Assembly (NCBI GenBank): GCA_963801605.1
Contig: CAWDFP010000006.1
Coordinates: 928,001 to 992,000 of the forward strand
From: an uncultured candidate division Zixibacteria bacterium
GTDB taxonomy: Bacteria > Zixibacteria > MSB-5A5 > UBA10806
Length of the DNA: 64,000 nucleotides
Reading direction: 5' to 3'
Under the pieces are notes generated by a model, which ran no database searches, was not told the origin of the DNA, and saw only the letters and a list, made by a program, of their open reading frames with translations. Below, piece after piece: positions 4,966 through 19,401 of this stretch; position 1 is the stretch's first letter; each line of letters starts with the position of its first letter. A program made the translations under genes and the position numbers.

Positions 4966-7490
4966 ATGAAACGGACAATCCTGACACTGGCATTGATATT
5001 AATAAGCGCTCAAGCACTTTGGGCTGATGGCATGCTTATACCCCGACCTATGCCCTGGATGCCGCCAAGCGCACAGGTTAATATCAAGTATCATGATGTT
5101 GATGTAGTAATCAACGATCCCGCGGCACTTACAAAAATTGACCAGGTATTCATTAATCCGTTCAATCGCGAAATCGAGGCCGATTATATTTTCCCGATCC
5201 CCGATAACGCCGCTATCAGTCATTTTACCGCCTGGCTTGGGGGTCACAAGATGGAAGCCGAGCTTTTAGATGCCACCGGCGCGCGCAAAATCTATGAGGA
5301 TATCGTTCGAGCCCGTAAAGACCCTGCTCTGTTGGAGTATGCCGGCCGCGGGATGTATCGTATGCGCGTTTATCCCATCCCGGCCAGGGGAGAGGTACGC
5401 ATTCAGATCGAATATGAACAAACTCTCAAGTCCGACAACGGCACGGTGGAATATATTTATCCTCTGAATACCGAAAAATATTCGGGCGCGAATTTAGAGC
5501 GTTGTAAGGTTACGGTTAATGTGAATTCGTTCGAAAATATCGGTTCCGTTTATAGTCCTACTCATCAAATGGCAATCGAGCGGCTGGGCGAAAAATCGAT
5601 GAAAGTTGTTTACAATGATGAAAATGTCAAACCCGATAAAGATTTGGTTGTTTATTTCACCCGCCAAACCAGCGATTTCGGTTTTCACCTTTTGAGCTAT
5701 GGCGAGCCGGGAAGAGAGGGTGGTTATTTTATGGGTATTCTATCGCCGCCGTTGGAAAGCCGTCGAGTTGAAACTAACAAAAATGTAATCTTCATTTTGG
5801 ATTCCTCGGGCAGCATGCGCGGCGAAAAATTCCAGCAGGCAATCGATGCCCTTAAATTTTGCCTCGGCGGCCTTAACCCGGGCGACCGTTTTAATGTGAT
5901 CGATTACGATGACGATATCCGTCCCTTTAAACCGGAACTGGTAACCGCGAATAAAATTAATATCGATGAAGCCTCCTCATTCGCCAATTTGGCCGAAGCC
6001 GCAGGCGGCACCAATATCTATGATGCTCTTGCGAGTGCCTGCCGAATGATCCGATCCAGCGTCAATCCGTCATATATCTTGTTTCTTACCGATGGCCAGC
6101 CGACCGTGGGCAATACAAGTATCGAGCAGATAATCAGCAATACATCCGCTTTAAACGAAGGCCGAGCGCACATATTTGTGTTTGGCGTGGGGTATGATGT
6201 CAACACCAATCTCCTTGATCGTCTGTCCGAACAGAATCATGGGCTGCCGGAATATGTCCTGCCTGATGAAAATATCGAATCCAAAATTTCTCGGGTAGCA
6301 TCCAAACTCAGCCATCCGGCCCTGACCGATGTTAATATCTCATTCGGAAACGCAAATGTCTCTCGTATCTATCCTGCTCCGATACCGGATCTATTCTACG
6401 GTTCAGAAATCATTGTAACCGGACGATTTGAAAGAAATGGAACCTCGCAAGCGGTCGTTACCGGCCAAGTTGGCGGAAAGAATGTCACCTTTGAATTTCC
6501 GGTTACTTTTTCCGATGGCGACAGTCGCGATGATTTTATCGCCTTGCTTTGGGCTAATCGACGAATCGGATATTTGTTGCAAGAATTGAAATCGCACGGC
6601 TCCAACCAGGAGCTGCTGACAGAGGTGATTGAACTTTCCAAAAAGTACGGCATATACAGAGTACACGTCTTTTTTGGTTGGTGCAGGAAAGCGTGCGCAT
6701 CTATCCGCTATTGATTTATTCTACGGTTCGGAAATTATAATAACCGGACGATTTGAAAGAAATGAAACCTCCAAGCGGTCGTAACCGGTAAAGTTGGCAG
6801 AAAGAATGTCACATTCGAATTCCCGGTTACTTTTTCCGAGGCGACAGCCGCGATGATTTTATCGCGTTGCTTTGGGCTAATCGACGAATCGGGTATTTGC
6901 TGCAGGAATTGAAATCGCACGGCTCCAACCAGGAGCTGCTGACAGAGGTGATTGAACTTTCCAAAAAGTATGGGATCATAACGGAATACACCTCGTTTTT
7001 GGTGACAGGTGATGAGAGAGATAGAGGAAGGTATCTGGCTCTGGAAGACAAAGCCCTTAGCGCCAAAAAGGGTAAGGATATATCCAGCTATATGGCGCCT
7101 CAGAGCGGCGAATCGGCAGTCAAGCAATCGAAGAATATACAGAAACAGTTTCGAGCCGATTTAGTTGCTCTTCCGATGGCTTTTAGCGCGGTCCCTGCCG
7201 AAGCATGGCAAACGGCAGCGCCCACGGTGACACAAGTTGGAGCGCAGGGCTTTTTCCGGGTCGGCGATAACTGGATACAGGGAAATCTCAAGGGTGATAA
7301 ATACGACATGCAAATCAAACGATTCTCTCGCGCCTATTTCCAGCTTCTGGAGAAAGACCCCAAGCTTGGCAAATACTTGGGATTGGGTAATGAGGTGCGC
7401 TTGCAGGTTGGCACTCAGGTGGTGCAGATTGCCGACAGCGGCCAGGAAACGCTTAGCGACAAGGACCTAAGGGTGCTGTTTCCGAAATAA
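4966..7490 (+). CDS. Secreted VIT + von Willebrand factor A domain protein (inter-alpha-trypsin inhibitor-like), interrupted by an internal duplication
   Basis: Signal peptide; VIT domain (YEDIVRARKDPALLEY); MIDAS DSSGSM, GGT, LTDG. The C-terminus resumes in ORF 6867-7490 after the duplicated block. Confidence 0.85.
6388..7005 (+). repeat. Imperfect tandem duplication of ~290 bp inside the VIT-vWA gene
   Basis: ~6388-6680 is repeated at ~6713-7005 with mostly third-position substitutions, a few indels and a scrambled junction. Confidence 0.9.
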
Positions 7491-7563: not shown

Positions 7564-8828
7564 TTATCCTCTAAAAAATATCAGCGTTATTATTACAAAA
7601 ATCGGCAGAAGTATCATAGCGCCGAATATGCCATATAGCCGAAGAAATGAGGTACTTTGTACCCCTGCTCCTCGGCGATCGATTTGACCATGAAATTGGG
7701 GCCATTACCGATATAAGTATTCGCCCCCATGAACACCGCCCCGCAGCTTATGGCCCGAAGGATATCCACATGCACCCCGGAGATGATGGCGCCTCCAGTT
7801 TCAGCAATTTTCGATGTTACGCTTTGACCAAGCGTAAAAAATGTCAGGTAGGTCGGGGCGTTATCCAAAAATGAACTCAAACCTCCGGTCCACCAGAAAA
7901 ATTGCCAGGGCTTCGTTATGCCCAGCGATGCTCCTTTTTCGTGCAGCATCATCAACATCGGGACCATAGTGATGAAAATACCTGCAAATAGAATGGCAAC
8001 CTCGCTGATAGGATAAAAGGTAAATCCATTCTCTTTCCGTAGTTTCTTCGATGTGAAAAACACAGACAACCCGGCCATGGCGATCATAATGATTTCCCGG
8101 TATGGCGCCGGTGTCTGGAAAAATACTGACAATACTACTCCGGCCAGGAAGAGAAAATTTATCTTGCCCGAAACTCCCAAGGGTACAATGGCGCTTTCAT
8201 CGCGGATAAGATCAGCCTGTGACTCCCTCGAGTAGGCGCGCTTATCCCAGATATAAAATAGGAGCAGTAGCATCGAAATTAGGGTCAGCCATTCCGGCCA
8301 AAGGCCAAGTGTCCACGTAAAGGGTATCCCGCGAAGGTAACCCAAAAATAGCGGGGGATCGCCCAATGGTGTCAGGCAACCACCGATATTCGATACCAGA
8401 AAAATAAAGAATACCGGAATATGAGCAGTAAAATTCCGTTCGCTATTAGTCTTAAGCATTGGACGTATTAGCAGCATGCTCGCCCCGGTGGTACCAATGA
8501 AATTGGCCAGAACCGCACCTATGGCCAGAAAGGTAGTATTGATCCGCGGGGTGGCGCGCAGGTCGCCAGTCATGGCAATTCCGCCTGAGATAATAAATAA
8601 CGAGCCTAATAAAATTATAAATGAAAGATAATCTTTGATATTTTGAACAAGCTCAAATTGGTAATTCGCAAGTAAGAAAATAAATATCGGCAGGCTGACT
8701 ATGCCAGTGATAATTGCTTTATTTCTGTTTTTCTCCCAAAAGCGGGGGAATGCCAAAGGCATTATAGCGATTAAAAGTAGAAGGACAACAAAGGGTATGC
8801 CGCTGTAGAGAGTGATAGAAACTGGCAT
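7564..8828 (-). CDS. Putative Na+/H+ antiporter (ion transporter superfamily, CitMHS_2-like); one frameshift near the C-terminus
   Basis: Multi-TM protein with IGTTGASMLLIRP, SNIGGCLTPLGDPPLFLG, SSFLDNAPTY, GAVFMGANTYIGNGPNFMV; last helix MILLPIFVIITLIFFRG* lies in a shifted frame ending at 7564; SD GGAGG. Confidence 0.85.
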
Positions 8829-8849
8829 GGCCTCCTCGGCCGCCGCAAT

Positions 8850-9533
8850 TTACGGCGCGGGAATGATAAGAGTCGGCAAGCCGGAATCGCTGGCTCGATA
8901 CAAAGTCAGAGCCTGGTCGGGATCCATTTTCAACATCAGCATCGATTCGCCGAATGGACGCTGTAAAACATGCTTAACCTCGGCGATCGTGTTCTTGAAC
9001 TTGGATTCGGCCTTACCGGCGACATCGGTGCGAATATCTATAATCAGGTTATTATCCCAGAGTATCTGAAATCGCTGCGGTACCTGGCGCTGCAAAAGCT
9101 GAGGATCGACGTTAACCGCTTTTCCAACAATGGCCAGAATTGAATCCGGTGTTTTTCCGGATGATGCGAACAGATGTTTCTCTAATACCGGCCTGATAAG
9201 AATATTGTCTTTTCCCTGGAATCGCTTGGAGAAATCCACCAGCGAGCCGTAATCGCCATCAATGGTTCGCAGCGGATTGTTCCATACCTCAGTACCCTTA
9301 AGCCTGATCTCAATTTCGCGCTTTTGAAAATCGAGAACCATATAAGGTTTGCCTGTTCGAGCCAACCTAAGTTCGGCCTGGATTAACTCGTATTCCTGCT
9401 CAGCTTGAGACCATTCCCATTTTTTCGTCTCATTTGGCTGAGATTCCTCGCTCTGCTCGCCTTTTTTTTGACAGGCGACGACCGATAGAAGCGCCAGAAT
9501 AGCCAGAGAATATGTCCAACTTTTTTTTGTCAT
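8850..9533 (-). CDS. Lipoprotein with a degenerate YkuD (L,D-transpeptidase-like) fold
   Basis: Lipobox VVAC21; PYMVLDFQKREI and MLKMDPDQALTLYRASDSGLPTLII align with the termini of the neighbouring YkuD domain; no HG..GC motif; TAATG overlap with the upstream gene. Confidence 0.6.
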   Translation of the reverse strand: MTKKSWTYSLAILALLSVVACQKKGEQSEESQPNETKKWEWSQAEQEYELIQAELRLARTGKPYMVLDFQKREIEIRLKGTEVWNNPLRTIDGDYGSLVDFSKRFQGKDNILIRPVLEKHLFASSGKTPDSILAIVGKAVNVDPQLLQRQVPQRFQILWDNNLIIDIRTDVAGKAESKFKNTIAEVKHVLQRPFGESMLMLKMDPDQALTLYRASDSGLPTLIIPAP

Positions 9534-10180
9534 TAGAATATGTAAACCGGTGTGCCCGGCTTTACCCTATCATAAATTAACTTGAGATCTTCGGAGCCTA
9601 AACGAACACAACCATGTGTCACACTCACCCCGAGCAATCTCTCATACACCGTTCCATGTATAAAATAACCGCTGCCAAATCCAAGCGCGAAATCACCTAA
9701 CATCTCCGGGTCAAGCCGTTCGCTTTCTTCCTTGGGAGGCTTTTCCCCTTCCTCGATAAATGCCCAGTCAGGTTTTCTCCACCAGGGCTGTTTGATCTTA
9801 TTGAGGATCTTGAATGCTCCCCGAGGCGTATTAAACTGCCATTTGCGGCCGGTCAGGCTGTCGACAAGGATTCCGCCGTTGCCGGTCGAGCAGGTAAACT
9901 TGTAAATCAACGAATCTTCGGTGCGATAACTTAATTTGTTGGCATGGGTATCGATAACGATATATGGCATTTTAGGCTTGAAAGCTTGAAGATCCTTACG
10001 CGCCTTGACAAGCTCTTTTTGGGCCAGTTTTTTATCGGCTGGTAAGGGCGCAAATGTGGTATCGCTTAGCATCGTCATGCTCTCGGATGGCGGTTTAGCA
10101 TCCCTGAATACGATGAAAGCGCCAAGAGCAGCCGCAACGATAAAAAGCGGTAAAATTACGAATAGAAACACCTTTTTCAT
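9533..10180 (-). CDS. L,D-transpeptidase, ErfK/YbiS/YcfS-like, with N-terminal membrane anchor
   Basis: TPRGAF, PWWRKPDW, LGDFAL..GYFIHGT...LGVSVTHGCVRL; start placed at ATG 10180 (ATGA overlap with the upstream stop). Confidence 0.9.
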   Translation of the reverse strand: MKKVFLFVILPLFIVAAALGAFIVFRDAKPPSESMTMLSDTTFAPLPADKKLAQKELVKARKDLQAFKPKMPYIVIDTHANKLSYRTEDSLIYKFTCSTGNGGILVDSLTGRKWQFNTPRGAFKILNKIKQPWWRKPDWAFIEEGEKPPKEESERLDPEMLGDFALGFGSGYFIHGTVYERLLGVSVTHGCVRLGSEDLKLIYDRVKPGTPVYIF

Positions 10181-11254
10181 GGCCATAAATCCGATCGACG
10201 GACTATGGTTATTGGCATGCCGACCGAGGCAAACTGCATTAGATGATCGATATCGCGATCCGAGAGGGCCACGCAACCATCAGTCCAGTCTTTGTTTTTG
10301 CCCCCTTGACCATGGATCTCAATTAAAGCGCCGGCCCGGGCATAACGGGAAATGATTCCCTTGGCTTTATTTTCCCGGAGGCGACGGAGATCCGTCTGGT
10401 TTGGGTAATTAATTAATAACGCATGGTGAAATTTGCTGCTAACTTTAACCTTTGTCACATAATATGTTCCTTCAGGCGTGGCACCGTCGCCGGCAAACAA
10501 GTTTTTGCCGGGCCGAATTGTAGCCCAATTCGCAATTATACGAGCGAACCAAATCTCCGCCCTTAACCAGGTGCGCCTTATGAGCACTTTTATCGATTAT
10601 TAGGGCATAAGTTCCGTTTGCCCGTGACTGCTTCAGAGTCTCTCTTACCCATTGACGCCAAACACCAATCTTTCTGGCCTCATCATTGGCATATTCGGCG
10701 ACTGTGTTTTCCATATTCCGCAATTCATCTCGTCCCTTTTCAAGGGTTTTGCGAGCCTCGTCAAATTCCTGTTTGCGAATGAGGTTATCGGCCTGGTTCA
10801 GTGCAAACTCGGCAGATGTCCAATGTCGTTCGGCCTGGAAATTTTCGAGAGAGCCATCCAGAGATTCGCGCCAGGTATGAAGCTCATCTAACAATTCTGC
10901 CCGTTCCGATAATGCCAACGAATCGAGATTGCGAATAGTTTCCATTGTCTGGCGCTGGGCGTCCCGGGCGGTTTGTGAGGCCAACTTGAGGAGCGAATCG
11001 GCGTGTTGGTAATCGCGAAATGGAGCCAATCGTCCTTTCTGATGGGCAATTTCAAGCCAGCCGTCCCGTAAATACTTCTCTGCATTGCGATATTGATCCT
11101 TGTGATATCGTAATGCCCCGGAATCAGCAGCCAATTTTAGAGCGGTTTTGGCACCATCATAAACGGCCATGGGAGGATCCTGACAACTTAAAGTTGCGAG
11201 AAATAAAATTATTATGATTGCCGATAAGGTTCGTGTTAAATGTCTCAACTTCAA
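10177..11254 (-). CDS. Lipoprotein with a helical DUF4398-like stalk and C-terminal YafK/DpaA/Csd6-type YkuD domain; frameshift near 10500
   Basis: Lipobox TLSC24; ORFs 10472-11254 and 10177-10587 join at RQK/LFAGD; GDGATPEGTY, LLINYPNQTD, IEIHG...WTDGCVAL. Confidence 0.85.
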
Positions 11255-11292
11255 ATGATTCCGATACTTAACTTAAAAATTTGTTCTCTTAA

Positions 11293-11329
11293 GGCAAGGG
11301 CCGCCTTAAAAAAGACGGCCCACATTGCC
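11293..11329 (-). terminator. Stable intercistronic hairpin (partial terminator or mRNA stabiliser)
   Basis: Minus strand GGCAA-tgt-GGGCCGTCTT-tttt-AAGGCGGCCC-TTGCC just after the lipoprotein stop; no clean U tract. Confidence 0.6.
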
Positions 11330-11347
11330 CAAATTATTACTATCTAA

Positions 11348-11947
11348 TTACTTGCCAGCTTTGCGAGCTTTAGCGGCGGCAATCTCTTCCATGATCTTAT
11401 GAGCGTTCAGTACGACGCTCTCGATCTTGGATTTGGCAACCATGTACTTACCGGTGTTAATGTCCGCCTCGGCATCGGCGTATCCGGTTTGAACATTAGC
11501 TAATTCACCTTTAATCAGTTCGATGTCTGCCTTGTCGCCTTTGCCACGGGGGGCTTTGGCCAGAGCGGCGCTAGCGGAATCAACGACTGCCTTGGCGGTA
11601 GCCAGAGCTGCGACCACTTCCTGGTGCACTCTTTCCTTCTCGGTGGCGGCTTCAGTAGCGACGTTATTGAACATCTCGGTCGCCTTAACGAACATCTCTT
11701 TGGACTTGCCATAGCTTCTGAAGAGAGCGAACTTGGAATCCTGCTCCTTCTTGGCAGCGTCGGCGGCGTTCAAAGTGTCCATAGCGGCCCGGAAGCTATC
11801 CGGAACGTAAGTTTCGGCTTCAGCAGTTTGAGCAGCTCTCATCGCTGAATTGGCAGCCTGCATTTCAACCTCTGGGGGTTTGCTGCAACCAACCATCAGT
11901 GCTAACAGTGCCAGAGCGGCAACAATCAGTGTAAGACGTTTAAACAT
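11348..11947 (-). CDS. Ala-rich helical lipoprotein (DUF4398-like repeats) with C-terminal Lys
   Basis: Lipobox MVGC21; PP...A..A...A....A..Y pattern; ends AAAKARKAGK; SD AAAGGA. Confidence 0.8.
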   Translation of the reverse strand: MFKRLTLIVAALALLALMVGCSKPPEVEMQAANSAMRAAQTAEAETYVPDSFRAAMDTLNAADAAKKEQDSKFALFRSYGKSKEMFVKATEMFNNVATEAATEKERVHQEVVAALATAKAVVDSASAALAKAPRGKGDKADIELIKGELANVQTGYADAEADINTGKYMVAKSKIESVVLNAHKIMEEIAAAKARKAGK

Positions 11948-11983: not shown

Positions 11984-12026
11984 AAAAAAAATAGGACACG
12001 CGCCAGACCCATGCCAGCACACATCC
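11984..12026 (-). terminator. Leader terminator upstream of the lipoprotein/LDT operon
   Basis: Minus-strand RNA GGAUGUGUGCUGG-CAUGGGU-CUGGCGCGUGUCC then UAUUUUUUUU; several pairs are G-U and so form only on this strand. Confidence 0.6.
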
Positions 12027-12078
12027 CGCTTGCTTATTTTTTCATCGTTTGATGTTCCGTCGGATGCCGGATCGCTAG

Positions 12079-13998: not shown

Positions 13999-16900
13999 AT
14001 GAGCAGGGTGTTTCGGGATATGTTGAAAATTAAAAACCTGTTTGGGGCGGCGCTGCTGATTTTCTTAATAGTGTCCGTTACCACGGTTGTATTGATTCTG
14101 GCGCAACAGACCCAATCCAGGCCAGATTTAAAAGTCAAAGTTACTGATTTCAGGCCGAATGAGTATCTCAGTACTCTCGAACCGACCAATATCACAATCC
14201 GCTTTTCGCGGGACCTGATGTCTGATGATAGTCTCAATGTACTTTTTGCCGATGTTCCGATCGAAATAAATCCCCCAATTGAGGGATTGGGCAAATGGGT
14301 TGATAAAAATACCTTCACTTTTTATCCCAGTGGCCCGTTCAGGCCATCGACAGAATACATAATAAAAATCTCCAGCGCAAAAACTTATCTTTATGGCAAT
14401 CGTATCGACGAGCCGCGCACCTTTAAGATTAGGACCCCGACAATAGCCGTCAGCAATTTCTGGACTGAAATTGCGGATGTCCCCGAACCGCAATTCTGGA
14501 GCCGTCTGATAATTCACCTGACATTTACCTGCCCGGTGGATCCCAGCGAACTTAAAGAACATTTACCGTCGGTCTTAGGCGGCAAAGTGAAATTGAGCCT
14601 GATGGAACAGGCGCCTGCAAATGAGATGACTGTCGCATCAGAGCCATTCCGCAGCCAGGATTTCAATGGCAAATATGATTTTGTGATCTCCAAGGGGCTC
14701 AACTGTATAGGCGGTCAGATACCGCTTCAAGGAGATTATATCCAAAAGCTTGATATACCTAAGCCCGCGCCATTAGTAATTGAAAATGTGCGCTCCGAAG
14801 GTGCCGGCCCTAATTCGCATATCGTAATTCAACTCTCGCAATCAACCGCCCTGACCCAACTTGAGGATTTTATAACTCTGACACCCGGGATCGATTTTAC
14901 AATCAGCCAGTACTATAGCGAGATCGATTTGATCGGTAATTTCAAACCGCGCGAAACATATACTATCGCAATAAAAAAGGGACTTCGCTCCCTCGCCGGC
15001 CAGGAGTTGGAACGCGATTTCTCCGATCAGGTTATGATAGGTGATATGCCGCCGCGAATAACATTTCTCGATAACGGCGTTTTTATGTCGAAAAAAGGCG
15101 GCCAGCTTTTAGCGGTAGAAACTGTCAATATCGACGAGATCACCGTAGAGGTAGAACAGGTTTTTCCCAACAATATCGTTTATTATTTAGGCGATTACGG
15201 CCGCGGCTATCACGGTGAAGATAACGGCCGATTGGGCCGTCGAATATTCACCAAAGACTTCAAACTTACTCAAAATCTCAACGAACCCCTGACATCGACC
15301 ATAGATTTAGGCAAAATCGTGGGAGATACTCTGCATGGAGTCTACAGCGTGGCGGTGCGAAAAAAAGACCGCCGCTGGACCTACGACCAGCGTAAGGTTA
15401 TGATCAGCGATCTTGGTATTATGGCGCGCCTTTCGGATAACTATCTTATGGTTTGGATTAATACCCTCAGCGCCACTAAACCCGTGGATAATGCCAGCGT
15501 AACCCTGATTAGTCGCAATAACCAAGCTATCTTAGAGGGGAAAACCGATTCGCGAGGTCTGGCCATTTTCGAAAATATCGCTGAGAAGATCAAGAGATTT
15601 GATCCCTTTGTAATCACTGTCTCCAAGGATGGCGATCTTTCCTATTTGCAGTTTTCGGATTGCCTGATACCGACAACCGATTTCGATGTCTCTGGCAGAC
15701 CTTTTCTGGCCAAAGGTTATGAATCGTTTCTCTACTCAGATCGCGGGGTCTATCGTCCCGGCGAAACGGTTCATCTGGTTAGCGTGGTGCGTGGGGTGGA
15801 GGGTTCCGTCCCCCAGGAGTTCCCTTACAAGATAAAAATTACTGACCCCGAGGGGCGCGATTTCAAAGAGTATAAACTTGCCACGAAAGATGGCGGAATT
15901 TCCGCTCTCGATATTGAAATCCCATCATTCGCCAAAACCGGGGGCTATCTGCTGGCAGCCAAAATCGGCGATGAACTTATCGGCCAATACAATTTCCAGG
16001 TCGAGGAGTTTATGCCCGACCGCATTAAAACCGCTATCTCCACTGATAAGGAAAGTTATAACTCTGGGGATGAGGCCAGAATTGACGTCAACGGCGTTTA
16101 CTTGTTCGGGCCGCCTTGTGCGGGTAATGTGGTCGATGGCCATGTAACGCTTGAATCGGGCCTTTTCCAACCAAAAGGATTTTCGGAATATACCTTCTCG
16201 GATCCGGCAGTTGCATTTACACCTATCCAGGCGGACTTAGCATCGGATAGCCTCGACGCACAGGGCAATCACACTTATCATTACAAGGTCTCGCAAAATT
16301 TGAGGCCGCCCTCAGCTTTGAGAATGACAGTTTCCGCAACCATACGCGAAGATGGTGGCCGGGCAGTCAGCGCTTATAAGAGCGTGATGGTGAACCCCTA
16401 TAAAATTTATTTTGGTATCAAGCCCAATTTTGACGGATACGCGCGTTCAGGCGTCGCTGCTTCGTTTGGAGTGGTGGCGGTTAATGGCGATGGTCAGGGC
16501 GCTACAGCAGACTCGATCTGGGCAAAATTCTACAATATTACATATCAGAATATCATCAAGCGCGACCAGTACGGTATCTACCGATATGTCTCCGAGGAAA
16601 AAGACGTAATCATTGATTCATCACTCATCTCATTTTTCGGACAGGCTCAAACGGTTAATTTTACACCCAACGATTATGGCGCTTTCAGAGCCAGGATTGG
16701 AGTTCGAGGCGGGCATACGGCAACTGTAACATTTTATGTCCCCGGCTGGGGTTATTCTCCCTGGTCGATGGCGCATCCCGATAGAATTGATCTGACGCTT
16801 GATCGTAAAATTTATAAAGCAGGGGATAAGGCTCATCTTCTAGTTAAAGCTCCTTTTGAAGGAAAACTCCTCCTCACTTTTGAAAAAGACAAGGTACTGG

Positions 16901-19401
16901 AATTTAAAACTTACGATCTCGACAGCAACAGCGCCGAAATCGTGATTCCGGTTAAAAAAGATTATGCTCCCAATATCTATGTCACTGCCACGCTTATTAA
17001 ATCGACCACTTCTCTGGAGCGATTCTCTCCTGCCAGGGCTTTTGGCCTGGTGCCACTTTCGGTTGACAATTCCAGTATGAAGTTGTCAATGACCATCGAT
17101 GCACCCGACGTCATGAAGCCTCGGCAAAAGCTCGATTTGGCGATTAAGACCAATCTTGCTAAAGGCACCAGGCTAACGGTCGCGGCGGTCGATATTGGCA
17201 TTCTGCAATTGACTGATTTTCAGAGCCCCAATCCATTCGATTTCTTCTACGGCAAAAAGCGGCCCGGCCTGAATCCCTACGATATTTATTCATTGGTATA
17301 TCCCGATATCAAGGAGGCCGAATCGAAACTGACTCCAGGCGGCAGCAGCTACGAGGCCTCTCGAAAGCGACATCTTAATCCAATCAACGCCCGGAGAGTT
17401 AAACCTGTGGCGCTCTGGTCTGGAATTGTAGCAGTTGATGCCTCTGGATTAGCTCGCGTTTCGTTTGATGTCCCGCAATTTAACGGCAAGCTTTTGGTGA
17501 TGGCCACTGGTTTTAGCGCCGACAAGGTTGGTTCGGTATCCAAAGAGGTTACGGTTAGAGATAAGATTGTTATCCAGGAGGCACTACCGCGTTTTATTGC
17601 TGGAGGCGATACGATTCAAACCCGGGTCGTGGTATTCAACAACACGGGAGCGGATAATAATTTTGATATCACTATGGATATTACCGGCCCGGCTACGTTA
17701 ATCTCGAAAAAGAGCGCGAATGTATCCATTCCATCCAACAGTAAAGGTGTGGCTGATTTTGTAGTCCTGGCTAATGAAAAACCCGGCAAGGTTATCTTTT
17801 CTATCACGGCCTCGGGTGGGGGAGAGCAAGCGCTCGAAACTGTCGAGCTTGCTAACCGTCCCGGCCAACCCCTTTTGACCAAGCATGGCTCCGGCACAAT
17901 AAAATCCGGTACCTCGGCGCACATCAATATGTCCACAAGTTGGTTGGAGGGGACAGCCCAATACGATTTGAGAGTGTCGTCTCTTCCCACGGTGCGTCTT
18001 ACGGGAAGTATCCAATATCTTTTAACTTACCCTTATGGCTGCATGGAGCAAACAATCTCGAAACTTTTCCCGCTGCTCTATTTCAATGATCTTGCCAAAT
18101 TTCTGCAACCTGAGATTTTTGGCGGTAAGGGTCAGGATTACTTTATTGACGAGGGAATTGCCAAGCTTACGACCATGCAGCTGCCATCCGGTGCTTTCAT
18201 GTTCTGGCAAGGACAGCCGGTACCGAACCCCTGGGCAAGTATCTGGGCGACTCATTTTTTAGTCGAGGCCAGAAAGGTGGGCTACCAGGTTAGCGATGAT
18301 GTGTACGATAAGGCGATTGGAAACTTAGACCGCATGGCCAAAGATAATACTCTGGATAATAACAAAGGAGTTCTCCGCATTTACGCCGCCTATGTACTGG
18401 CCAAGGCGGGCAAGCTTGATAAAAGTGTTGTGAATAATCTCAAGCTTCTGAATATCGAAATCCTCCCGGTCTGGTCGCGCTTCCAGTTGGCCGGAACAAT
18501 TGCTATGACCAGCGGTGTCCAGGATGCCCTTTGGTTGATGCCTGCCGAGATTCACCCCATCAAGTATGAGCCTGAGACAGGAGGATATTTTGATTCCGAG
18601 ATCAGGGGGAATTCGATTCTTCTTGACGTTCTAAGCGATATTGCTCCGGATAATCCTGCCATCCCGGAACTTGTAAAGGAAGTTTCGGAAAATCTTTATG
18701 TGGGCGAGTGGTATACCACCCAAAGCAACGCTTTCGCGCTTTTGGCATTGGGACGATATTTCCATGCGCAGGAAAAACCGGATTATAACGGTTCAATAAT
18801 TGTTGACGGCAAAAAGTTTAAGCAGTTTGGAACTGAAGACCTCAACATTAATGATTTCGCCATAGGCGGTAAGGATATCGAGATCGCCATCAACGGAACC
18901 GGGACCTGCTACTACTGGTGGCAGGCCAGCGGCATAAGCGCCGATCGACAGGTGCGAGAATTTGACGATCGTTTGGTAGTAAGACGGGAGTATCTCGATA
19001 GCAAAGGCAGCCCGGTGAGCCTCGATGCACTTCAACTGGGAGATCAAATTGTGGCCAAAATAACATGCGAAGCACGTGATAAGGACCTCGATAATGTCGT
19101 TATTAACGATCTTCTACCATCCTGCCTGGAGATAGAAAATTCGCGGCTTGTTACAACCGGACGGCTTGCCTGGCTTCCCAATAGCGGAAATGGTCCTGCC
19201 TATATGGATATCAGAGATGATCGGATGCTGCTATTCGTAAACGATCTTCATCCAGGCAACCGCTTTACCTATTATTACTCGCTTCGGGTTGTTTCGAGGG
19301 GAGACTTCTTCGTGCCGCCGGTGGCCGCGGAGTGCATGTATGATCCGCTCATTGCCAGCGCAGCGTCATCGGGGCAGATGAAAGTTACTGATGCCAAATG
19401 A
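13999..19401 (+). CDS. yfhM: Bacterial alpha-2-macroglobulin (YfhM-like)
   Basis: 1800 aa; YSDRGVYRPGETV MG2 motif, FQVEEFMP, thioester YPYGCMEQ, DIRDDR, AECMYDP; followed by pbpC. Confidence 0.95.
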   Translation: MSRVFRDMLKIKNLFGAALLIFLIVSVTTVVLILAQQTQSRPDLKVKVTDFRPNEYLSTLEPTNITIRFSRDLMSDDSLNVLFADVPIEINPPIEGLGKWVDKNTFTFYPSGPFRPSTEYIIKISSAKTYLYGNRIDEPRTFKIRTPTIAVSNFWTEIADVPEPQFWSRLIIHLTFTCPVDPSELKEHLPSVLGGKVKLSLMEQAPANEMTVASEPFRSQDFNGKYDFVISKGLNCIGGQIPLQGDYIQKLDIPKPAPLVIENVRSEGAGPNSHIVIQLSQSTALTQLEDFITLTPGIDFTISQYYSEIDLIGNFKPRETYTIAIKKGLRSLAGQELERDFSDQVMIGDMPPRITFLDNGVFMSKKGGQLLAVETVNIDEITVEVEQVFPNNIVYYLGDYGRGYHGEDNGRLGRRIFTKDFKLTQNLNEPLTSTIDLGKIVGDTLHGVYSVAVRKKDRRWTYDQRKVMISDLGIMARLSDNYLMVWINTLSATKPVDNASVTLISRNNQAILEGKTDSRGLAIFENIAEKIKRFDPFVITVSKDGDLSYLQFSDCLIPTTDFDVSGRPFLAKGYESFLYSDRGVYRPGETVHLVSVVRGVEGSVPQEFPYKIKITDPEGRDFKEYKLATKDGGISALDIEIPSFAKTGGYLLAAKIGDELIGQYNFQVEEFMPDRIKTAISTDKESYNSGDEARIDVNGVYLFGPPCAGNVVDGHVTLESGLFQPKGFSEYTFSDPAVAFTPIQADLASDSLDAQGNHTYHYKVSQNLRPPSALRMTVSATIREDGGRAVSAYKSVMVNPYKIYFGIKPNFDGYARSGVAASFGVVAVNGDGQGATADSIWAKFYNITYQNIIKRDQYGIYRYVSEEKDVIIDSSLISFFGQAQTVNFTPNDYGAFRARIGVRGGHTATVTFYVPGWGYSPWSMAHPDRIDLTLDRKIYKAGDKAHLLVKAPFEGKLLLTFEKDKVLEFKTYDLDSNSAEIVIPVKKDYAPNIYVTATLIKSTTSLERFSPARAFGLVPLSVDNSSMKLSMTIDAPDVMKPRQKLDLAIKTNLAKGTRLTVAAVDIGILQLTDFQSPNPFDFFYGKKRPGLNPYDIYSLVYPDIKEAESKLTPGGSSYEASRKRHLNPINARRVKPVALWSGIVAVDASGLARVSFDVPQFNGKLLVMATGFSADKVGSVSKEVTVRDKIVIQEALPRFIAGGDTIQTRVVVFNNTGADNNFDITMDITGPATLISKKSANVSIPSNSKGVADFVVLANEKPGKVIFSITASGGGEQALETVELANRPGQPLLTKHGSGTIKSGTSAHINMSTSWLEGTAQYDLRVSSLPTVRLTGSIQYLLTYPYGCMEQTISKLFPLLYFNDLAKFLQPEIFGGKGQDYFIDEGIAKLTTMQLPSGAFMFWQGQPVPNPWASIWATHFLVEARKVGYQVSDDVYDKAIGNLDRMAKDNTLDNNKGVLRIYAAYVLAKAGKLDKSVVNNLKLLNIEILPVWSRFQLAGTIAMTSGVQDALWLMPAEIHPIKYEPETGGYFDSEIRGNSILLDVLSDIAPDNPAIPELVKEVSENLYVGEWYTTQSNAFALLALGRYFHAQEKPDYNGSIIVDGKKFKQFGTEDLNINDFAIGGKDIEIAINGTGTCYYWWQASGISADRQVREFDDRLVVRREYLDSKGSPVSLDALQLGDQIVAKITCEARDKDLDNVVINDLLPSCLEIENSRLVTTGRLAWLPNSGNGPAYMDIRDDRMLLFVNDLHPGNRFTYYYSLRVVSRGDFFVPPVAAECMYDPLIASAASSGQMKVTDAK

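Follow-up and report, generated by a model that had tools for sequence, protein, structure and literature searches.

A conserved four-gene cassette in Zixibacteria may encode a reversible lipoprotein tether to peptidoglycan through an internal lysine

Introduction

Could a single bacterial operon encode a covalent tether between membrane and cell wall together with the enzymes that attach and release it? This question is raised by a group of genes in a 64,000-nucleotide window (the whole stretch of DNA analyzed here) from an uncultured candidate division Zixibacteria bacterium (assembly GCA_963801605.1, contig CAWDFP010000006.1, positions 928,001-992,000 of the forward strand). A preliminary description had read five genes as a reversible tethering operon, consisting of a helical lipoprotein attached through its C-terminal lysine, a writer, an eraser, a pseudo-enzyme and an ion antiporter. 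Our analysis leads to a modified answer. The reading of writer, eraser and pseudo-enzyme fits the catalytic signatures, synteny and co-occurrence of the genes, whereas the antiporter falls outside the system and the terminal lysine is not conserved. We propose, with a probability of roughly 0.45, that genes 1-4 would form a self-contained, reversible covalent link from a membrane, probably the outer one, to peptidoglycan via the internal residue Lys136 of gene 1.

All five genes are present and co-oriented on the minus strand, as previously stated. Gene 1 is followed by a gap of 93 bases, an ATGA overlap joins genes 2 and 3, a TAATG overlap joins genes 3 and 4, and 21 bases precede gene 5. The features are:

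11348..11947, minus strand: gene 1, DUF4398-like all-helical lipoprotein and candidate tether, 199 residues, Cys21
11531..11554, minus strand: APRGKGDK loop of gene 1 (residues 132-139), with the codon of Lys136, the proposed peptidoglycan acceptor, at 11540-11542
11292..11330, minus strand: GC-rich hairpin 3' of gene 1 (z -3.7), leaky terminator or stem stabilising the messenger RNA
10177..11254, minus strand: gene 2, membrane-anchored helical stalk (gene 1 paralogue) and hydrolase-type, DpaA/Csd6-like YkuD domain
9533..10180, minus strand: gene 3, transpeptidase-type YkuD protein with N-terminal hydrophobic anchor, His175, Cys191 and Arg193
8850..9533, minus strand: gene 4, exported YkuD-fold pseudo-enzyme, gene 3 paralogue
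7564..8828, minus strand: gene 5, CitMHS_2 transporter, local neighbour only

Results

Genes 1-4 form a conserved and patchily distributed unit

We compared two sets of loci, namely the near loci (the best 80 of 340 genome loci that a search with gene 1 returned) and the distant loci (the best 80 of 250 metagenome loci, from a distant clade). Gene 2 follows gene 1 in all 80 near loci; 73 of them also have gene 3 and 72 have gene 4, and every absence of gene 3 or gene 4 coincides with a contig end. For the distant set, we counted those loci that are long enough to hold the gene in question: 31 of 32 carry the catalytic domain of gene 2, all 27 carry gene 3 and all 19 carry gene 4. Thus, the synteny that the preliminary description had named as a check extends to genes 1-4. 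Gene 5, in turn, lies near the cassette in 3 of the 80 near loci, once on the other strand, and was ruled out as a part of the system by this low co-occurrence. The transporter is there as described; its membership is not borne out, and the unit has four genes instead of five.

Within the phylum, 151 sampled genomes yielded 66 with a strong match to gene 1 and 65 with one to gene 4. Both genes occur together in 64 genomes and neither in 84, leaving three with only one of them, and in two of these three the locus stops at a contig edge. Two further groups contained gene 1 matches in 6 of 18 and 17 of 61 genomes, and the nearest relatives are mostly labelled Zixibacteria. Genes 1-4 are a tightly linked unit of patchy distribution. 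The openly accessible literature that we searched contained no description of this four-gene cassette.

Individual loci deviate in layout. One cassette carries genes 2 and 3 in a single frame of 577 residues, either a fusion or an indel (L018, 7668-9401). Another has two tandem copies of gene 1, both of which keep Lys136 (L102, 4753-6464), and in a third gene 4 lies upstream of gene 1 (L150, 4872-8705).

Gene 1 is a helical lipoprotein with signs of high expression

Gene 1 encodes an all-helical lipoprotein, as had been noted, with a lipobox around Cys21, a mature chain of 179 residues and the C-terminus KARKAGK. The predicted model has a predicted local distance difference test score (pLDDT) of 86 and consists of helices spanning residues 26-41, 49-70, 80-130, 139-164 and 168-196. 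Residues 28-72 match DUF4398 (Pfam PF14346) with 26.4 bits, close to the gathering score of 27.9, and several relatives carry the DUF4398 label. A fold search with the model returned nothing at an expectation value (E) of at most 0.001, the weak rows including Borrelia BB0323 and generic helical bundles, and a sequence search of the PDB with the gene 1 profile gave signal-peptide or coiled-coil matches only. The proposed lack of evident similarity to Lpp was confirmed, as gene 1 has no match to PF04728 and its five main helices are joined by turns, in contrast to the single-helix Lpp trimer. Neither was an Lpp match (PF04728) obtained in the 87% complete genome of the window, for which an E. 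coli control was positive. The central helix (80-130) comprises 51 residues, corresponding to ~76 Å by rise per residue. It starts at a conserved KFALFR loop and is followed by the APxGK loop, which contains Lys136 and sits between helices 80-130 and 139-164.

Two features set gene 1 apart from its neighbours. The hairpin 3' of the gene has a z below -2 in 65 of 76 loci, compared to 2 of 76 coding controls, while its sequence varies. Moreover, the synonymous codons of gene 1 rank at the 98th percentile of 1099 long frames when a 20-gene ribosomal operon is taken as reference, and those of genes 2-5 lie between the 19th and 64th percentile on the same scale. The conserved hairpin and the ribosomal-like codon use point to a structural protein of high abundance that outnumbers its enzymes.

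In one subclade (L031, L032, L039, L041, L042, L044, L045, L047, L051, L053 and L055), gene 1 bears two cysteines in its tail (…ICKAYEAKGKKCM-like). These possibly form a disulfide that closes the C-terminus, which would speak against an acceptor at the end of the chain.

Conservation favours Lys136 as the candidate acceptor

Clustering of 395 gene 1 proteins at 60% gave a non-redundant set of 158 homologues, all of which keep Cys21. The Lys136 column holds 156 lysines and 2 arginines and is the most conserved one after Cys21 and Pro25, whereas other lysine columns accept arginine freely (Lys72, 121 Lys and 27 Arg; Lys139, 76 and 39). All 85 cassette-complete loci keep Lys136, and its motif is present in all 80 distant loci, which had been fetched with a pattern that does not contain it. 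Standalone gene 1 paralogues without enzyme neighbours lack the motif in 15 of 17 cases; in a tree that includes 14 of these 15, they fall into two supported lineages. The APxGK motif is likewise absent from the stalk of gene 2.

The terminal lysine, which had been proposed as the acceptor with K199A as its control, behaves differently. Of 120 close proteins, 88 end in it. Among the loci, it occurs in 49 of the 80 near ones and in 39 of 76 closed distant ones, and in a third clade (labelled KSB1, Bacteroidales and Fibrobacteres) it is present in 33 of 115 proteins. In the non-redundant set, terminal arginine is as common as terminal lysine (49 and 47 of 158). A lack of conservation of this residue had been named beforehand as refuting the proposal, and such a lack is what we find. 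Attachment through the C-terminus, exactly as in Lpp, nevertheless has points in its favour. The frequency among close relatives exceeds the genome background of 16-21%, the tail is expected close to the distal tip of the rod, and Lpp-box attachment tolerates substitutions according to the available text of PMC12274547. Against it, gene 1 has R, M, H, N, Q, L, G or S as its last residue in 38 of the 85 complete cassettes (lysine in 47), the five final positions contain no lysine at all in 8 of the 80 near loci and 11 of the 76 distant ones, and a terminal lysine is more frequent in the enzyme-free paralogues (12 of 17). We consider this version very improbable. Judging from the sequence comparisons, Lys136 appears to be the better candidate, and K199A is probably the wrong control residue, since the terminal lysine is not conserved and is commoner where the enzymes are missing.

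Two YkuD enzymes of different type and a pseudo-enzyme

Genes 2 and 3 carry YkuD domains, as claimed. The catalytic motif HG..(S/T)xGChR is present in gene 3, with invariant His175, Cys191 and Arg193. The residue two positions after the catalytic cysteine is arginine in 100 of 100 gene 3 sequences and alanine in 103 of 103 gene 2 sequences, and the presence or absence of arginine at this site corresponds to the split between transpeptidases and hydrolases in the published excerpts of PMC8263019 and PMC10434034. The designation of gene 3 as ErfK/YbiS/YcfS-type turned out to be too specific. Its scores against the LdtA/B/C (ErfK/YbiS/YcfS) equivalogs are 30-33 bits, with cut-offs of 480-583, and cover the catalytic end only; gene 3 stops near position 231 of the profile, which has 306, so that the C-terminal region of LdtA-C is absent. 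In the accessible part of PMC10434034, anchoring and cross-linking enzymes are inseparable by lineage.

Gene 2 has the K-x3-GD-x2-TPEG signature, including the equivalent of DpaA Lys83, in 104 of 104 sequences. Two residues before the catalytic histidine stands a glutamate (100 of 103) or a glutamine (3 of 103). At this position, Csd6 and D-Ala carboxypeptidases have the tryptophan of the D-Ala pocket (PMC10653827, available text) and DpaA has a methionine (PMC8263019, likewise). The position of DpaA Tyr109 is Tyr or Phe. A C-terminal fragment of gene 2 scored 21.7 bits against the DpaA/YafK equivalog, for which the cut-off is 365. By its sequence, gene 2 is a hydrolase-type enzyme that departs from genuine DpaA as well as from typical carboxypeptidases, and a pocket of acidic character would be well matched to a leaving group that is basic. 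A third YkuD protein of the same genome (G000:C6:848-1309) is of the gene 2-like hydrolase type as well (GDGGTPEG, IRIHG, WTKGCVG); it has an arginine instead of the glutamate before the histidine and a different N-terminal domain.

In the window, the reading frame of gene 2 is broken near 10500, immediately ahead of the GDGATPEG motif. Relatives encode an intact protein of 350-370 residues, and the assembly is indel-prone, with frame changes in 9 of 49 test loci (some of them false) and a murE split into four pieces; for these reasons the break is probably an assembly error. A programmed frameshift was judged unlikely, as relatives are intact and essential genes of the same assembly are broken too.

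Gene 4 had been described as YkuD-like and without catalytic residues, and this is what we find. It has no Pfam or NCBIfam match. However, its model (pLDDT 87) gave seven Foldseek matches at E<=0.001, all of them L,D-transpeptidases. The VIA alignment to YkuD has a Z of 8.3, a root mean square deviation of 3.6 and 103 aligned positions, and the 19 top rows are all YkuD-type. No histidine or cysteine is conserved, as among the mature-chain columns of 85 rows cysteine occurs in at most 10 and histidine in at most 32 per column.

Profile comparison relates the proteins to each other. The N-terminal ~180 residues of gene 2 align to gene 1 (HHalign, 99.1%) and gene 4 aligns to gene 3 (94.6%), so that by sequence the cassette is made of two paralogous pairs, gene 1 with the gene 2 stalk and gene 3 with gene 4. 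This layout is typical of hetero-oligomers and suits the main competing explanation, in which gene 1 paired with the gene 2 stalk and gene 3 paired with gene 4 would form a membrane-anchored, non-covalent scaffold for local remodelling of peptidoglycan (3-3 cross-linking and stem trimming), with Lys136 binding the wall or a partner. In its favour, the accessible text of PMC5406399 presents DUF4398 in Leptospira LipL71 as the stalk for a LysM domain that binds the wall non-covalently, a weak gene 1 relative carries an OmpA domain (see below), and gene 2 resembles Csd6 and Pgp2. The hairpin and codon signal, however, indicate that gene 1 is present in large excess and not at 1:1, Lys136 is almost never replaced by arginine, although a salt bridge would usually allow it, and gene 2 lacks the carboxypeptidase tryptophan. 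We regard such a scaffold as possible, if somewhat unlikely.

The OmpA-bearing relative is a protein of 518 residues with a weakly gene 1-like helical N-terminus and a C-terminal OmpA domain (L107, 4882-6438). It is a possible non-covalent tether.

Membrane location and points against a covalent tether

The residue at position +2 is Ser, Ala or Gly in 74 of 74 gene 1 sequences and Gln, Glu or Asp in 41 of 43 lipidated gene 2 sequences. In 31 of 74 gene 2 sequences the lipobox pattern is missing, and many of these have a transmembrane (TM) anchor instead; of the former assignment as a YkuD lipoprotein, the domain holds, and the lipid anchor (lipobox pattern in 43 of 74) is not conserved. By the E. 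coli +2 rule, which we assume here and which may not hold in these phyla, the two sets of residues suggest different membranes. This hints at gene 1 in the outer and the enzymes in the inner membrane. The genome of the window also encodes DapF and a MurE with the motif DNPR, which we take to be consistent with meso-diaminopimelate (meso-DAP) peptidoglycan.

The same chemistry at Lys136 could also operate with gene 1 remaining in the inner membrane and tying it to the wall, as described for Dickeya OutB in the available part of PMC12274547. With a TM anchor in gene 3, and often in gene 2 as well, all parts could share this membrane, and we obtained no LolA match in the 87% complete genome. Opposed to this are the differing +2 residues of genes 1 and 2, and we hold this version to be improbable.

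The lack of a LolA match is one of several points that weigh against the covalent tether to the outer membrane. The cassette is patchy, with gene 4 in 65 of the 151 phylum genomes and in 1 of 6 others of the same family; because of this distribution it is not an essential tether. Four standalone close copies of gene 1 keep Lys136 (L103, L108, L193 and L195), one of which resides in a 98% complete genome (G087) in which genes 3 and 4 were not found. The motif-less paralogues amount to only about two independent events, and the near loci were retrieved with two patterns, one of which contains GK. A surface lysine that never varies might just as well serve to bind a carboxylate of peptidoglycan or another protein as a partner. 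Regarding the hydrolase, G-L-I-E-I-H in gene 2 replaces K-Y-L-M-I-H of DpaA, so that DpaA Lys130, Tyr131 and Met133 are missing, and its best matches among solved structures include the carboxypeptidases Csd6 and Pgp2. Finally, the placement of the hydrophobic KFALFR loop at the membrane and of the APxGK loop at the far end of the rod is inferred from helix order in the model, not from coordinates.

Neighbouring features of the locus

Gene 5 also has a frame change, near 7620. Elsewhere in the window, a tandem duplication of ~325 bases with 90% identity (6388-6976) splits a VIT/vWA-domain gene into 4966-6714 and 6867-7490 and is probably an assembly artefact. Just upstream of the gene 1 ribosome-binding site lies a terminator-like hairpin (11993-12027, minus strand), and 2 kb from the cassette a gene for a bacterial alpha-2-macroglobulin of 1800 residues is encoded on the opposite strand (13999-19401). 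A promoter scan gave a signal at chance level.

Discussion

In the mechanism that we propose, gene 1 would be made in excess and hang from its lipid as a rod, which would bring the APxGK loop and the basic tail to a distance of ~7-8 nm from this membrane. From its anchor in the inner membrane, gene 3 would cut D-Ala from a tetrapeptide stem and transfer the resulting tripeptide to the side-chain amine of Lys136, and gene 2 would hydrolyse the tripeptide-Lys136 amide. The stalk of gene 2, which resembles gene 1 without the loop, may place the catalytic domain comparably far from the membrane in which gene 2 itself is anchored. Gene 4 might act as a non-catalytic partner that aids gene 3 in recognizing gene 1 and so makes up for a C-terminal region that is present in the Lpp-attaching enzymes of E. 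coli and missing from gene 3; this is the weakest step.

The closest parallels are E. coli Lpp with LdtA/B/C (ErfK, YbiS, YcfS) and DpaA (YafK, LdtF), and P. aeruginosa OprI with LdtPae2/LdtPae3. As there, the cassette combines a helical lipoprotein showing signs of high expression, a transpeptidase with arginine at Cys+2, and a hydrolase with alanine at this position and the DpaA Lys83 equivalent. The length of the main gene 1 helix, ~76 Å, is near the E. coli spacing of ~85 Å given in the accessible text of PMC12729407. Unlike Lpp, gene 1 is a folded helical bundle of 179 residues without detectable relation to it, and its terminal lysine is not conserved. The cassette further differs in that its membrane-anchored enzymes share one operon with the lipoprotein, the hydrolase has a tether-like stalk, a pseudo-enzyme is added, and the LdtA-C C-terminal region is missing from gene 3. 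By analogy, we propose that the cassette works like Lpp/LdtA-C/DpaA, yet it is not a member of that system, because it has no Lpp similarity, no conserved terminal lysine and no equivalog score.

Attachment through an internal lysine has precedents. Coxiella LimB is linked to meso-DAP via Lys21 and Legionella Lpg1810 via a non-terminal lysine, as far as the available portions of PMC12729407, PMC12274547 and PMC11841132 describe them, and the proposed role of Lys136 as an acceptor for an L,D-transpeptidase would resemble theirs. In contrast to the cassette, those portions present LimB as Coxiella-specific, with short spacing and an enzyme that is not known, and mention no dedicated operon, hydrolase or pseudo-enzyme for either protein.

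Single components have other relatives. Gene 2 shares the K-x3-GD-x2-TPEG loop and the lack of the transpeptidase arginine with the L,D-carboxypeptidases Csd6, Pgp2 and Bd1075, from which it differs by its glutamate at the D-Ala-pocket tryptophan position and by showing no NTF2-type tail. Gene 1 is a DUF4398-type helical lipoprotein stalk like Leptospira LipL71/LruA (DUF4398 and LysM); unlike this protein, it has an APxGK loop and dedicated enzyme neighbours in place of a wall-binding domain.

A more far-reaching version of our proposal is tentative, and we would rate it as rather unlikely. According to it, the four genes would be an undescribed mobile tether of Zixibacteria, Calditrichota and Eisenbacteria, in which a DUF4398 rod is stapled to the wall through the lysine of APxGK, the pseudo-enzyme serves the attaching enzyme as substrate adaptor and the rod copy of the detaching enzyme acts as a built-in ruler.

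The accessible text of PMC12729407 describes covalent membrane-to-wall tethers for proteobacteria only, and that of PMC8263019 reports many DpaA-like enzymes in species without Lpp, their substrates being unknown. Within a single operon that occurs in several uncultured phyla, the cassette offers a candidate substrate with a named residue as the proposed acceptor, the two enzymes and an accessory factor, and it can be tested in E. coli. If true, the proposed link would assign a role to part of the DUF4398 family and to conserved YkuD pseudo-enzymes, a family missed by Pfam and NCBIfam.

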